A stretch of 64,000 nucleotides of DNA from Acidobacteriota bacterium (GTDB taxonomy: Bacteria > Acidobacteriota > Thermoanaerobaculia > Gp7-AA8). A program made the translations under genes and the position numbers. Each line of letters opens with the position of its first letter. The first letter of the stretch is position 1. The DNA lies in assembly GCA_025463165.1 (NCBI GenBank), contig JAOBAU010000337.1, forward strand, positions 1,073 through 65,072. Direction: 5' to 3'. Of the stretch, positions 42,717 through 46,817 are shown piece after piece. The notes under the pieces are model-generated. The model saw only the letters and a program-made list of their open reading frames with translations. It did no database searches and was not told the DNA's origin.

Positions 42717-43772
42717 ATGAACAAGCGCGCCTTTGCTGTCGCCGGTCTCTGTCTGTTCATCGTCGTCACGCTCGCGGCGCAGACCGCGCCGGCGCCACCG
42801 ATGCCGGTCTTTCCGCGCGTCGTGAAAGCGACCGGCTACGGCCCGGGCGGCACCGCCGGTCTCGGCCACCGACTGGTCGTCGACATCGAGAACTTCCCGT
42901 CGCTGCTCGAGAAATCGGGCGGCTGCGACGGCATCGTCCTCTTCATCAACGACCTGCCGATGGCCGGCGTGAAACCGGTTTCGTGCGATGAGACGAGCGG
43001 CCGCGTCCACTTCATCCTCGATCGCGATCCGTCCAACCAGAAGAACGACATGGTCTGGCACACGCTGCTCGGCAGCCCGACGAGCTATGTGCGCGAAGCG
43101 AAGGTCAGCGTCGGACCGAATGAATCGACCGTCTATCCGTCATCGAAGACGTTCCGGCTTTTCATCATTCCGCGCGTCATGCTCTTCATCTTCTTCATCC
43201 TGTTCATCGTGACGCTGGCGATCTTCGTTCACCTCTGCCGGAAGACGAGTATCATCCGCAGCCCGGTCGTCGCGCCGCCCGGCTCGCTGCCGCCGTACAG
43301 CCTGTCGCGGTTTCAGATGGCGTTCTGGTTCTTCCTCGTCATCGCCGGTTATGTCTTCATGTGGATGATCACCGACGAGCTCGACACCATCACCGAATCG
43401 ATCCTCGCGCTGATCGGCATCGGCGCCGGCACCGCGCTCGGCGCGGCGATGATCGATGCGCCGCCCGGCGCCGGCCAGCCCGCTCCGCCGCCGTCACCGT
43501 CGAAGGGATTTCTTCACGACATGCTCACCGACGACAACGGCGGCGTCAGCTTCCACCGCTTTCAGATGTTCGCGTGGACCATGATCCTCGGCATCATCTT
43601 CCTGACCTCCGTCTACAAGCAGCTGGCGATGCCGGAGTTCAGCGCAACGCTTCTCGGTCTGATGGGCGTTTCCTCCGGCACCTACCTCGGCTTCAAGTTC
43701 CCCGAGAAGAAGAACGAACAGCTCGTCGCGTCGGGTCAGCTGCCGCCGCAAACACCGCCGGAAGCGAAGTAG
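42717..43772 (+). CDS. Hypothetical membrane protein (signal peptide, periplasmic domain, 4 TM with internal 2x repeat)
   Basis: Signal peptide MNKRAFAVAGLCLFIVVTLAA. Repeats SLSRFQMAFWFF… and SFHRFQMFAWTM…. Confidence 0.6.
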   Translation: MNKRAFAVAGLCLFIVVTLAAQTAPAPPMPVFPRVVKATGYGPGGTAGLGHRLVVDIENFPSLLEKSGGCDGIVLFINDLPMAGVKPVSCDETSGRVHFILDRDPSNQKNDMVWHTLLGSPTSYVREAKVSVGPNESTVYPSSKTFRLFIIPRVMLFIFFILFIVTLAIFVHLCRKTSIIRSPVVAPPGSLPPYSLSRFQMAFWFFLVIAGYVFMWMITDELDTITESILALIGIGAGTALGAAMIDAPPGAGQPAPPPSPSKGFLHDMLTDDNGGVSFHRFQMFAWTMILGIIFLTSVYKQLAMPEFSATLLGLMGVSSGTYLGFKFPEKKNEQLVASGQLPPQTPPEAK

Positions 43773-43794: not shown

Positions 43795-44481
43795 ATGCGT
43801 CTCCTCCTGATCTCGTCCTCCACCGTTCACGGACACGGCTACCTCGATCACGCCATCCCCGACATCGCGCGAATCCTCGGTACGCGCAAGCGCGTCGGCT
43901 TCGTGCCGTACGCCCTCGCCGGTCACCTCGGATACACGGTTCAGCTGCACGAACGGCTTTCACAGATCGGAGCCGAGGTGACGATGATCGCGACGCCGGA
44001 AGACGTCCGTTCCGTCGAAGCGATTTTCACCGGCGGCGGCAACACCTTTCGCCTGCTGAAAGCTCTTTACGATCGCGCGCTGCTCGAGCCGATTCGCGAC
44101 GCGGTCAGGAACGGGCTGCCCTACATTGGCACGAGCGCCGGCACGAACATCGCCGCGCCGACGATCAGGACGACGAACGACATGCCGATCGTCGAGCCGC
44201 CGTCATTCAACGCGTTCGGCTTCGTTCGCTATCAAATCAATCCGCACTATCTCGATGCCGAGCCGTCGACGACACACATGGGCGAGACGCGCGAAGAGCG
44301 CATCATGCAGTTTCACGAAGAGAACGACACGCCGGTGGTCGGCCTGCGCGAAGGAGCGCAGCTCCTCGTGGAGAACGGCTCGACGACGCTGGCGGGCGAT
44401 CGTCCGGCGCGGATTTTCCGTCGCGGCCAGGAACCGGTGGAGGTCGAGCCGGGTGCGACGCTCGATCGCTATCTCGACTGA
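43795..44481 (+). CDS. pepE: Dipeptidase E (peptidase S51, alpha-aspartyl dipeptidase)
   Basis: MRLLLISSS…YIGTSAGTNIA (S51 Ser nucleophile context). Confidence 0.8.
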   Translation: MRLLLISSSTVHGHGYLDHAIPDIARILGTRKRVGFVPYALAGHLGYTVQLHERLSQIGAEVTMIATPEDVRSVEAIFTGGGNTFRLLKALYDRALLEPIRDAVRNGLPYIGTSAGTNIAAPTIRTTNDMPIVEPPSFNAFGFVRYQINPHYLDAEPSTTHMGETREERIMQFHEENDTPVVGLREGAQLLVENGSTTLAGDRPARIFRRGQEPVEVEPGATLDRYLD

Positions 44482-45008
44482 ATACGCGTCGCGCATTCGC
44501 CGACGCTGCCGCAGACGGTCGTGATCATCCCGCCGTTGACGAGGAAGACCTGCGGCGTCTTCGAGTACTTCGTCCGCACTTCCGGTGCGAGCGATTCCGG
44601 CGTGCGAAAAACGAGACCGGCGACGTCGAGTCGTTTCGCGAATGCGGCCGTCTCCGCTTCGTTCCCGGTGCTGACGATCACCGGCGGGACCGCTTTCGAC
44701 AACGGCAGCGCGCGCAACTCGCCTGCCGCTTCCTCGCACGTGCCGCAATTCGGATCGACGACGAGGACGAGCTGCCGTCCGCGCGGCGCCTGCGACGGCG
44801 TCATGACGGTGCCGTTCGGCGAGACGAGACCGCCGAACTCGAAGCGCTCGCCGGGATGAAAGACGCGCGACGACGCCATGCGCCGCGACTGTTCGAGCGC
44901 GATGCGCAGCCCCGCGTTCTCCCGCCGCAACATCACGTTGGACCAGATCAGCAGGACCATCGCGACGACGACGGCGAGTTCGAGAAGACGGAGCGGAAGG
45001 TTCTTCAT
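44469..45008 (-). CDS. Membrane-anchored thioredoxin-fold protein (TlpA-like thiol:disulfide oxidoreductase)
   Basis: TM anchor LELAVVVAMVLLIW. Active-site-like VVDPNCGTCEE (CxxC) and a second CGSVGEC. ATG at 45008, with an alternative TTG at 45092. Confidence 0.55.
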   Translation of the reverse strand: MKNLPLRLLELAVVVAMVLLIWSNVMLRRENAGLRIALEQSRRMASSRVFHPGERFEFGGLVSPNGTVMTPSQAPRGRQLVLVVDPNCGTCEEAAGELRALPLSKAVPPVIVSTGNEAETAAFAKRLDVAGLVFRTPESLAPEVRTKYSKTPQVFLVNGGMITTVCGSVGECATRIQSR

Positions 45009-45060
45009 GGAAGGATTACGGAGGAGCGCCGCGCCGAGGCGGCGCTCCTCGCGGAGATCA

Positions 45061-45348
45061 TTAGCAGCTGGCGACGAACCACTGGCCGGCAACCGCGTCG
45101 TAGTACGACTGGTTGCAGTAGCTGCCGCCGTTGGAGCACGACTCGCCGTACTGAATCCACCACTGGCTGGTCACGCCGCCGCGGTAGATCGGGCCGTTGC
45201 AGGTGACATATCGGTAGCCCACTTCGTCGGTGAATGTTCCGTCGGAGTAGTAGTACGTCTCCGAGGAATTGGACGGCAGCGAATACGCAACGGTGGTGAT
45301 CGAGGCAACGAGCAGCGACAGCATTAGCGCCAGACGAAAACGTTTCAT
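45061..45348 (-). CDS. Small secreted Cys-rich protein, paralog A (95 aa)
   Basis: Signal peptide MKRFRLALMLSLLVASITTVAYS. RBS aaGGAAGaatcccc-ATG. Four Cys and Tyr/Trp-rich. Paralogous to 45457-45756. Confidence 0.65.
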   Translation of the reverse strand: MKRFRLALMLSLLVASITTVAYSLPSNSSETYYYSDGTFTDEVGYRYVTCNGPIYRGGVTSQWWIQYGESCSNGGSYCNQSYYDAVAGQWFVASC

Positions 45349-45456
45349 GGGGATTCTTCCTTAAGGGATGGGATTTGACGACTCCCGAATGGTACCTGAA
45401 CGGCCTTATGTCCGACACTGAAAAGTGTCAGTATGTCCGGACGGCGGACACGGCCG

Positions 45457-45756
45457 TTAGCCGTTCCAGTCGCAGGCCTCGCGCTCCCAGCGATGGGCGA
45501 CCTCGTCGTAATACCAGCGGTTGCAGAGAGTTCCGCTGCTGTCGCAGTCGTATTCGTACTGGATGAAGTACGAGGTGTGCATCCCGGTCTGCTCGATGTT
45601 GTTCTCACAATCGATGTAGCGATAGCCGACCTGCGTGGTGTAGGTGATGTCGGTGTAATAGAAGGTTTCGAGGGCGGCGTGCTGAAACGAGTTAGCGACG
45701 GTGGCTGACGCGGCGACGAGCAGCAGCAGAATGGCGGTAACGCGAAGTCGTTGCAT
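45457..45756 (-). CDS. Small secreted Cys-rich protein, paralog B (99 aa)
   Basis: Signal peptide MQRLRVTAILLLLVAASATVANS. RBS GAGGAAGatccc-ATG. Aligns with paralog A across ET.YY.D.T.T..VGYRY..C…IQY…C…G..CN..YYD.VA..W….C. Confidence 0.65.
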   Translation of the reverse strand: MQRLRVTAILLLLVAASATVANSFQHAALETFYYTDITYTTQVGYRYIDCENNIEQTGMHTSYFIQYEYDCDSSGTLCNRWYYDEVAHRWEREACDWNG

Positions 45757-45881
45757 GGGATCTTCCTCGCTCGCTTGAATTTGACTGCGGGCGGAATGAT
45801 ATCCGCGTCACGCTTCATTAGCTAAGTCCGGCCGCAAACAATCAGCAACGGTCGCGCGCGTAGAATCATCCGATCTCAGTA

Positions 45882-46817
45882 ATGGGTGAATCGGCGCGCG
45901 ACGAAGGATTTCTCGAACGGCTGATCGGCGACGGCCGGGCGCTGATCAAGCTGCTCGCACTGGCGCTGATCGGCTCCGGCGTCTTCGTGCTGTTCCAGGC
46001 GGCGACCGGCCACTTTCTGCCGCACGACACCGCCTGGCTCGGCATGACCGCGCAGCAGCTCTGCACGTCGCACGGCTGCCGCATCGTCCACTTCATGATG
46101 CACGACCGCGTTTCGTTCGGCGGCGTGCTGATCGCCATCGGTGTGATGTATCTCTGGCTCGCCGAGTTTCCGCTGCGTCGCGGGGAAACGTGGGCGTGGT
46201 GGGCACTGGCCGCAAGCGCCGCCGCCGGTTTCCTCAGCTTCCTCACCTACCTCGGATACGGCTATCTCGACACGTGGCACGGCGCGGCGACGCTCGCACT
46301 GTTGCCGCTCTTCGCATCAGCGCTTTACCGAACGCGCGCGCTGCGTCTCAATCGCGTGCTGATCGCACCGTTCGACTTCCGCACGCGCGCCGGCGTCGGA
46401 CGAATGCTGCTCATCGCGACGACGACCGGCATCATCGCCGCCGGCCTGACGATCATGACCGTCGGTATGACGGCCGTCTTCGTGCCGCAGGATCTCGAAT
46501 TCATGCGCATCACACGCGCTGAACTGCAGCAGCACAGCGCTCGATTGATTCCGCTCATCGCGCACGACCGCGCCGGCTTCGGCGGCGCGCTCGTTTCGTG
46601 CGGCGTGGCGATGCTCTTCGCCGTGCTGTACGGAACGCCGTCGCGCAATCTCCGGCAGGCGCTGGCGATCGCCGGAACGGCCGGCTTCGCGACCGCCGTC
46701 GGCATTCATCCACTGATCGGCTACACGAACGCGACGCATCTCGGACCGGCGGTGTTCGGCTGCGTGGTCTTCGCGATCGGACTCGCGCTTGTGCAGCTGG
46801 GCCGCGTCCGCGCTTAG
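45882..46817 (+). CDS. Hypothetical polytopic membrane protein (about 8 TM, internal duplication)
   Basis: Duplicated halves contain HFMMHDRVSFGGVLIAIGVMYLW and LIAHDRAGFGGALVSCGVAMLF. Loop CTSHGC. Start uncertain. Confidence 0.55.
   Translation: MGESARDEGFLERLIGDGRALIKLLALALIGSGVFVLFQAATGHFLPHDTAWLGMTAQQLCTSHGCRIVHFMMHDRVSFGGVLIAIGVMYLWLAEFPLRRGETWAWWALAASAAAGFLSFLTYLGYGYLDTWHGAATLALLPLFASALYRTRALRLNRVLIAPFDFRTRAGVGRMLLIATTTGIIAAGLTIMTVGMTAVFVPQDLEFMRITRAELQQHSARLIPLIAHDRAGFGGALVSCGVAMLFAVLYGTPSRNLRQALAIAGTAGFATAVGIHPLIGYTNATHLGPAVFGCVVFAIGLALVQLGRVRA

Follow-up and report, generated by a model that had tools for sequence, protein, structure and literature searches.

A conserved gene pair encoding a DUF6289 protein and a membrane-anchored thioredoxin-fold protein in Thermoanaerobaculia: a candidate client and its oxidoreductase

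Introduction

Well-known cases of oxidoreductases dedicated to a single exported client come from the bacteriocin systems of Gram-positive bacteria and from the maturation of methylamine dehydrogenase, where MauD is an anchored thioredoxin-like protein needed for maturing MauA, the disulfide-rich periplasmic small subunit. To our knowledge such enzymes are rarely documented in Acidobacteriota. Here we describe a minus-strand locus of an Acidobacteriota bacterium (Thermoanaerobaculia; Gp7-AA8), located within a stretch of 64,000 nucleotides (nt) of contig JAOBAU010000337.1, assembly GCA_025463165.1 (here denoted the window). The locus consists of two tandem small genes, A and B, encoding exported cysteine (Cys)-rich proteins related to the family DUF6289, followed by a gene encoding a thioredoxin-like protein (denoted the enzyme).

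Among the bacteriocin systems, PedC was proposed, and BlpG and BdbA were reported, to mature the disulfide-containing bacteriocin encoded alongside them, all three being CXXC proteins of the thioredoxin superfamily (PMC4919988). PedC (pediocin PA-1), BlpG (thermophilin 13) and BdbA/BdbB (sublancin 168) resemble the locus presented here in that a CXXC accessory gene and a gene for a small exported product share an operon (PMC4919988). The likeness considered here is one of operon layout and CXXC motif. Those systems are Gram-positive and use ABC-transporter export, double-glycine leaders and immunity genes, whereas the window system has a Sec signal in a diderm, no linked transporter or immunity gene, and a putative client that is an acidic beta-protein of 70 residues and is not known to be antimicrobial. 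MauD is the best NCBIfam match of the window enzyme but far below threshold (12 bits, E 0.1, against a cut-off of 188.6), and therefore the enzyme is not a MauD member; moreover, no mau genes lie nearby and the client is unrelated. By fold, the closest proteins are TlpA, ResA, CcmG (DsbE), FetE and SdbA, which like the enzyme carry an N-terminal anchor, a CxxC at the start of helix 1 and a cis-Pro loop, and the TlpA/ResA class also shares the thioredoxin fold with an N-terminal hairpin extension (F-x-F-x-L...G...V-L-V-V-x-P-x-C-x-x-C). Identity to this class is, however, only 10-20%, the CxxC of the window enzyme lacks proline, and the enzyme has an extra invariant C-terminal CX5C. The partners of the class are cytochrome c, CoxB, ScoI or iron uptake, while that of the window enzyme is a DUF6289 protein.

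Both components belong to known families and the type of system is known. What is new is the strict linkage of DUF6289 and oxidoreductase genes, the extra invariant CX5C of the enzyme and a conserved stem-loop between the two genes. The value of the locus lies in annotation and in a modest hypothesis that provides a handle on an uncharacterised family, and it does not overturn current understanding.

Results

A DUF6289 gene precedes the enzyme gene in divergent genomic contexts

The three minus-strand genes (Table 1) have identical NCBI records, JWO97_3524, JWO97_3523 and JWO97_3522, all named 'hypothetical protein', as is the record of gene A, MCU1230640. The enzyme family is rare; a word-indexed search detected seven clusters. 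The preliminary description of the locus, made from the letters of the DNA, had proposed looking for co-occurrence of the small genes with TlpA-like genes. Seen from the enzyme side this co-occurrence is complete: a DUF6289 gene stands immediately upstream, on the same strand, in 10/10 enzyme homologues with readable upstream DNA. These comprise the window, L001 and L045, which form one synteny group, as well as L002, L003 (L004 and L005 are its duplicates), L050, L051, L034 and L082. The genes flanking the pair vary and include PepE and an eight-transmembrane (8-TM) protein, A2M/PBP and a cytochrome-like protein, AraC and a histidine kinase, and others, so the linkage is seen in at least five genomic contexts.

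The linkage also spans three divergent enzyme lineages. Enzymes that are ~25% identical keep the transmembrane (TM) helix, the CxxC (CGTC, CESC or CDAC), the cis-Pro and the CX5C, while the DUF6289 partners of the three lineages carry 4, 2 and 8 Cys and represent three tail types. In L034 the enzyme is 25% identical and has CESC, its start codon overlaps the stop codon of its partner (TGATG), and the partner has 2 Cys. In L082 an enzyme with CDAC is paired with an 8-Cys partner. Client and enzyme genes are separated by 22-52 nt or overlap by stop and start codons in TGATG; in the window the gap between the stop of B and the enzyme ATG at 45008 is 52 nt. Since the linkage extends over three enzyme lineages and three tail types, the shared DUF6289 core is likely what matters, and the evolutionary conservation of the pairing argues that the link between small protein and enzyme is functional rather than incidental. 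As judged by gene order, the DUF6289 and oxidoreductase genes form a strictly conserved pair, a seemingly portable two-gene cassette. The suggestion of the preliminary description that the small proteins have a dedicated oxidoreductase is thus borne out for the pairing, while the relation of enzyme to substrate is what we infer from it.

From the client side, a degenerate DNA pattern for the DUF6289 core detected 122 loci, 44 in genomes and 78 in metagenomes, and their open reading frames (ORFs) were searched locally by a hidden Markov model (HMM) with the enzyme profile. This search added two pairs far more divergent than the rest, L034 and L082. A search for further thioredoxin-like genes beside the remaining DUF6289 genes found none, and a metagenome scan with the enzyme alignment confirmed nothing. 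In L002 the DUF6289 gene is closely preceded by a gene for a 162-amino-acid protein that has a signal peptide, several Cys and no Pfam family (Table 1); this gene was seen in none of the other contexts.

The downstream gene encodes a membrane-anchored protein with a thioredoxin fold

The enzyme contains one TM segment, spanning residues 8-26, and two Cys motifs: CGTC at residue 88 and CGSVGEC at residue 166 (C166/C172). In an alignment of seven homologues C88, C91, P152 (the cis-Pro, in TPQVF), C166 and C172 are all invariant, and in comparison with PDI A4 the CGTC falls on the active-site CGHC. No curated family threshold in Pfam (Thioredoxin_2, Redoxin, AhpC-TSA) or NCBIfam (MauD and others) was reached by sequence, the best matches being Thioredoxin_2 (13.5 bits, cut-off 27) and the MauD match given above. 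An AlphaFold2 model (mean predicted local distance difference test score, pLDDT, 74.7) matched 189 PDB chains by Foldseek at E<=1e-3, led by FetE, ResA, TlpA, SdbA, DsbE and Etrx (E 2e-6 to 6e-5), which are N-terminally tethered extracytoplasmic oxidoreductases. Structure matches and alignments together show a thioredoxin fold with the CxxC at the canonical position and a cis-Pro loop, in agreement with the earlier assignment of a TM-anchored thioredoxin-fold protein carrying CGTC and CGSVGEC. None of the CxxC variants of the family contains proline (CGTC, CGSC, CSVC, CESC and CDAC). The CX5C pair at residues 166-172, at the beta5-alpha4 junction, is invariant in all three enzyme lineages, and C166/C172 may form a structural disulfide, act as a relay pair or bind a metal.

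The small proteins are diverged members of DUF6289

A Pfam scan of A and B yielded a sole match for each, DUF6289 (PF19806), with 21.8 bits for A (E 2.3e-4) and 22.6 bits for B (E 1.3e-4). Both scores stay below the gathering threshold of 27.3 bits, and both proteins align to positions 3-43 of the 43 positions of the profile. A word-indexed search with protein A retrieved one close relative only, and it took an exhaustive HMM search to arrive at the family: a profile built from A, B and the close relative P0001 was run against 1.84 billion cluster representatives and retrieved 162 of them at E<=1e-3. When 136 relatives were scanned singly, 106 matched PF19806 (E<=1e-3, best E 4.2e-12) and none matched another family; PF19806 is also listed for orthologues in precomputed tables. 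By this profile homology we assign A and B as diverged DUF6289 members that score below the Pfam threshold. The preliminary description had left the small-protein family unrecognised and had held that a lack of homologues would mark the ORFs as spurious. The family now has a name, and relatives of the two proteins were found.

About 145 shorter family matches, of 57-160 amino acids, were examined and share one architecture: a signal peptide (often ...A-x-A/S followed by LP), a core (E-x-YYSDxTYTxxVGxxxxxCxGxxxxxGxxTxYxxxxxxxC) and a variable tail. In the family alignment G44 and C50 are invariant and D36, G58 and C71 are at least 90% conserved. From the core onward the number of Cys is even in 128/145 members (2 in 40, 4 in 33, 6 in 48 and 8 in 6), and the first two Cys are 21-22 residues apart in 128/144. 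Even numbers and fixed spacing are the signature of extracytoplasmic disulfide-bonded proteins, indicating a one-disulfide core to which the tails add Cys pairs. The window proteins represent a minority 4-Cys subtype, with the tail C..(W/Y)..G.W....C. They share with the family the signal peptide and the two-Cys core at family spacing and differ in their scores below threshold and in an extra, predicted C-terminal beta-hairpin with a second Cys pair.

The literature searched contained no paper on DUF6289 or PF19806, and neither a function nor a solved structure is on record; PDB sequence searches with the small-protein profiles gave no match. AlphaFold2, given an alignment of 136 sequences, modelled B confidently (pLDDT 89.9) as a signal helix followed by six beta-strands. 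By the limits of these strands, C78 faces C95 in the register of the last hairpin. These limits and the modular Cys pattern point to the disulfides C50-C71 and C78-C95 in B, a connectivity predicted from strand limits rather than from coordinates.

Two matches were dropped as relatives. P0130 (1402 amino acids, 19 stretches) is a repetitive, junk-like sequence, and P0144 (661 amino acids) is an Ig-like repeat protein whose sole likeness is a WYSDATFTT-type motif. The seven repeats of P0144 contain AEWYSDATFTTSVGNGNN...TYYVRFEGTC, an echo of the DUF6289 core motif that is probably a convergent beta-hairpin and not homology. Genomes may also carry unlinked DUF6289 copies, for example SMAG_U1354 with L012, L043 and L047.

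A 6-Cys DUF6289 subtype (tail ...CPANICDS..F.C) has its own conserved exported partners, encoded downstream in the same orientation (Table 1). One is a secreted protein of ~500 amino acids with FN3/PLAT domains, found at 6 loci, and the other is a secreted right-handed beta-helix protein of ~616 amino acids, found at 3 loci. DUF6289 proteins may generally act with an exported protein encoded downstream. Another recurrent 'downstream ORF', in L027, L075, L099, L109 and L126, was rejected as a protein, because it looks like conserved non-coding or repeat DNA that can be read in two frames. This stretch lies 3' of another 4-Cys DUF6289 gene in several Thermoanaerobaculia contigs. It matched no Rfam family (L075 was searched), and the five loci yielded neither tRNA nor tmRNA. 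In L075 and L126 tandem repeats come after it, each unit being about seven to eight codons long.

Genes A and B are constrained paralogues of unequal rate

Each of the two proteins has a single N-terminal hydrophobic segment, at residues 6-24, followed by A-x-S, as seen by hydropathy. Together with family-wide conservation this points to signal peptides on both. The mature proteins have isoelectric points (pI) of 4.35 (A) and 4.05 (B), both are 21% aromatic, and neither contains lysine. A and B share 43% identity over 95 residues (E 8e-29), and their four Cys align. In all of this the preliminary description was right: it had reported two small ORFs with Sec signals, paralogous in their mature regions, with four conserved Cys, acidic and rich in aromatic residues.

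Orthologues of the three genes on the metagenome contig L001, 88-98% identical, gave ratios of non-synonymous to synonymous substitution rates (dN/dS) of 0.17 (A), 0.04 (B) and 0.30 (thioredoxin-like gene), indicating that all three are real coding genes under purifying selection. Protein A is 88% identical to its L001 orthologue, with a dN of 0.065 compared with 0.009 for B. The orthologues that adjoin the thioredoxin-like gene in L045, L002, L003, L050 and L051 resemble B, not A (65-80% identity to B versus 43% to A). A single small gene, not two, is present in L045, L002, L003, L034 and L082. The gene order of L045 matches that of the window as far as the 8-TM, kinase and ClpA genes, yet L045 has one B-like gene. 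By these comparisons copy A is the derived, faster-evolving copy, and the tandem duplication is recent, local and confined to the window's own lineage. Because the duplicate is lineage-specific, the 'protein pair' of the preliminary description is not a defining feature of the locus.

A stem-loop between client and enzyme genes is conserved

The ribosome-binding site (RBS) strings are AGGAAGATCCCATG for A and AGGAAGAATCCCCATG for B, and the similarity between the two genes continues for ~40 nt on the upstream side, GTCAAAT included. The duplication of RBS and 5' untranslated region reported earlier is therefore real, but the two strings had been swapped between A and B. The hairpin reported in the 108-nt spacer, GACACTTTTCAGTGTC, is present at 45414-45429, within a structured region (z -3.1), but it is not kept in the close relative L001.

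A different element lies between the stop of B and the start of the enzyme gene. This perfect 12-bp stem-loop is GC-rich and has no U-tract, with a minimum free energy of -30.7 kcal/mol and z -2.5 (inverted repeat). It is kept in L001, L045, L002, L003, L050 and L051, at a protein identity of only 63-72%. Within the window it does not recur as a dispersed repeat, and Rfam detected no known RNA in 44300-46000.

The operon promoter presumably lies in the divergent intergenic region upstream of A; a scan of this region limited to sigma-70 promoters found 0 promoter-like sites. The only terminator-like site is inside the enzyme coding region and occurs at chance frequency. The 3' end of the thioredoxin-like gene overlaps the convergent dipeptidase gene pepE (PepE, 264 bits) by 13 nt, and a terminator would not fit between the two. 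L001 and L045 have this overlap as well.

Table 1. Features of the locus and loci used for comparison (positions refer to the window unless a locus is named)
Feature	Position	Strand	Description
Small gene A	45457..45756	minus	99-amino-acid Sec-type precursor; DUF6289-like core and predicted C-terminal disulfide hairpin; faster-evolving duplicate
Small gene B	45061..45348	minus	95-amino-acid Sec-type precursor; ancestral copy
A-B spacer	45349..45456	minus	108 nt; B leader and RBS AGGAAGAATCCCC-ATG, duplicated from that of A, AGGAAGATCCC-ATG
Intercistronic stem-loop	45021..45050	minus	between B stop and enzyme start; arms GAGGAGCGCCGC / GCGGCGCTCCTC, 12 bp, 6-nt loop
Thioredoxin-like gene	44469..45008	minus	179 amino acids, N-terminally anchored, TlpA/ResA-like; ATG at 45008
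CX5C pair	44493-44513	minus	residues 166-172 of the enzyme
3' overlap	44469-44481		thioredoxin-like gene and pepE
pepE	43795-44481	plus	convergent dipeptidase gene
Divergent intergenic region	45757..45881	unstranded	125 nt; A leader and RBS
8-TM gene	45882..46817	plus	311 amino acids, internally duplicated polytopic membrane protein, 2x HDRxxFGG; neighbour, outside the cassette
Membrane protein gene	42717-43772	plus	351 amino acids, predicted
Signal-peptide protein gene	L002 5126-5614	plus	162 amino acids; just upstream of the DUF6289 gene
6-Cys subtype loci	L015 1518-3461; L049 2-1716; L069; L078; L101; L118; L019 510-2720; L095; L132		DUF6289 gene with exported downstream partner
Two-frame stretch	L027 2240-2561; L075 3209-3790; L099 3804-4140; L109 670-991; L126 1-814		rejected as a protein
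Desaturase/8-TM loci	L053 3193-4924; L055 3195-4942; L056 675-2422		8-TM gene downstream of a desaturase gene

Discussion

A proposed operon of an exported client and its private oxidoreductase

We lean, with a confidence slightly better than even, towards an operon in which an exported DUF6289 client is encoded together with a dedicated TlpA/ResA-like enzyme. The first gene or genes would give rise to Sec-exported, all-beta DUF6289 proteins of ~8-9 kDa, each with a one-disulfide core (C50-C71 in B) and a C-terminal beta-hairpin stapled by C78-C95. The last gene would encode a thioredoxin-fold oxidoreductase tethered to the inner membrane by its N-terminal helix, with the CxxC domain on the periplasmic face. 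There the enzyme would form the DUF6289 disulfides by oxidation, or proof-read them by isomerisation, as the client emerges from the Sec translocon. The GC-rich stem-loop would probably lower expression of the enzyme relative to the client or stabilise the upstream message, the outcome being much client and little catalyst. For the mature DUF6289 protein, a role as a binding protein of the periplasm or the cell surface seems to us likelier than that of a released toxin: in a diderm, Sec delivers its cargo no further than the periplasm, and no secretion or immunity gene is linked.

Several observations weigh against the client-enzyme operon. From the client side, the enzyme is present at only 3/122 of the pattern-found DUF6289 loci, indicating that most members of the family fold without such a dedicated enzyme. 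With only one disulfide in the L034 partner and a sequential predicted connectivity in B, no isomerase is obviously needed; the disulfide geometry of DUF6289 is itself a prediction made outside the model coordinates. No redox partner for the enzyme (DsbB/VKOR or DsbD/CcdA) was identified, and no DsbD/CcdA gene is linked. Lysine plus arginine residues on the N-terminal and C-terminal flanks of the TM helix number ~2 versus 3-5 in the window type, 4 versus 4 in L034 and 5 versus 3 in L082 (hand count), and these charges are ambiguous under the positive-inside rule. In addition, the stem-loop changes across loci by G-U only, with no compensatory pairs, and it may be a DNA-level site rather than an RNA structure.

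Other relations between the two proteins

The enzyme might act on its partner in the opposite direction, as a TlpA-like reductase that keeps the DUF6289 Cys reduced, or the DUF6289 protein might be no client but a stoichiometric subunit or specificity adaptor. We consider this unlikely, even though the closest folds are mostly TlpA/ResA/CcmG-class reductases and the invariant C166/C172 sits at the beta5-alpha4 junction, which in thioredoxins borders the active-site groove. The DUF6289 core contains no conserved histidine or methionine metal ligands and no cofactor-attachment motif, and the even Cys parity across the family points to structural disulfides. Regarding stoichiometry, the stop-start overlap in L034 favours equimolar synthesis, whereas the conserved stem-loop of the window-type cassette speaks against 1:1 expression. 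That other DUF6289 subtypes have other exported downstream partners (PLAT at 6 loci, beta-helix at 3) would suit a subunit or adaptor, while the absence of a linked DsbD/CcdA gene counts against a reductase. A cytoplasmic thioredoxin-like domain (N-out, C-in), acting before export or elsewhere, possibly through a four-Cys metal or Fe-S (iron-sulfur) site made of the CxxC and CX5C, would reduce the linkage with DUF6289 to regulation or a pre-export function, and we hold it to be very improbable. All close structural relatives with an N-terminal anchor are extracytoplasmic, and a Sec client must stay unfolded before export, leaving no obvious role for a cytoplasmic oxidoreductase acting on it. 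The charge argument cuts both ways, since window-type proteins have more lysine and arginine after the TM helix than before it, while the L082 enzyme has the more positive N-flank. The four invariant Cys and a CxxC without the usual proline would agree with a metal site; in glutaredoxin and thioredoxin variants loss of that proline is permissive for Fe-S binding.

Following the precedent of PedC, BlpG and BdbA, with a structural gene next to a CXXC accessory gene, the DUF6289 proteins could instead be released antimicrobials of the bacteriocin type, the enzyme a PedC-type maturation protein, an immunity protein or both, and copy A a diversified second toxin. That the proteins are small, exported and disulfide-bonded, that their tails vary widely and that a genome may carry several unlinked copies would suit such a factor, as would the enrichment of the family among competitors and predators of the soil (Myxococcota, Lysobacteraceae, Acidobacteriota and Massilia). 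However, no transporter, type II secretion system, lysis gene or recognisable immunity gene is conserved with the cassette, no third gene recurs across contexts, and Sec export in a diderm would leave the product in the periplasm. The proteins are acidic (pI ~4), not cationic, and no match was found in PADLOC, in the Pfam bacteriocin families or among solved bacteriocin folds; PADLOC and NCBIfam searches returned nothing meaningful. Copy A has evolved ~7 times faster than B at non-synonymous sites, but its dN/dS of 0.17 denotes purifying and not diversifying selection. On balance we find a bacteriocin-like factor distinctly unlikely. The signalling or adhesin-like role also raised in the preliminary description is speculative. 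We give similarly little credence to a broader proposal than the bacteriocin-like one. It would make DUF6289 a structurally new and widespread family of effectors in soil diderms (Acidobacteriota, Myxococcota, Lysobacteraceae and Massilia), exported by Sec and stapled by disulfides; the variable Cys-rich tails would set target specificity (antimicrobial, or inhibitor and immunity), the Thermoanaerobaculia cassette would be the first Gram-negative counterpart of PedC/BdbA, and the recently duplicated, fast-diverging copy A would represent an emerging specificity.

Neighbouring genes

The divergently transcribed neighbour of gene A encodes an internally duplicated membrane protein, as described earlier. 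Its two repeats share 29% identity (E 3e-12); the motif reads HDRVSFGG at residue 74 and HDRAGFGG at residue 228. Hydropathy gave six strong segments, two in the first repeat and four in the second. Two weaker segments in the first repeat were placed by eye and by symmetry with the second, which makes the eight helices of the preliminary description plausible. The protein has >4197 homologues, ~70% identical across Thermoanaerobaculia, and no Pfam or NCBIfam family. The 8-TM gene is absent at the cassette loci L002, L003 and L034, and the L082 contig is too short to tell. In three other Thermoanaerobaculia genomes it stands directly downstream of a fatty-acid desaturase gene (PF00487), with a gap of 0-4 nt or an overlap (Table 1). 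The speculation that the 8-TM protein is a membrane partner of the small proteins is thus not upheld, and from these gene orders we judge its adjacency here to be lineage-specific synteny and the gene not to be part of the cassette. The desaturase linkage suggests that the 8-TM protein is a partner in lipid desaturation. In the window's lineage the desaturase neighbour is missing.

On the other side of the locus, the gene at 42717-43772, without a Pfam or NCBIfam match, encodes a predicted membrane protein with a signal-like N-terminus and a proline-rich linker.

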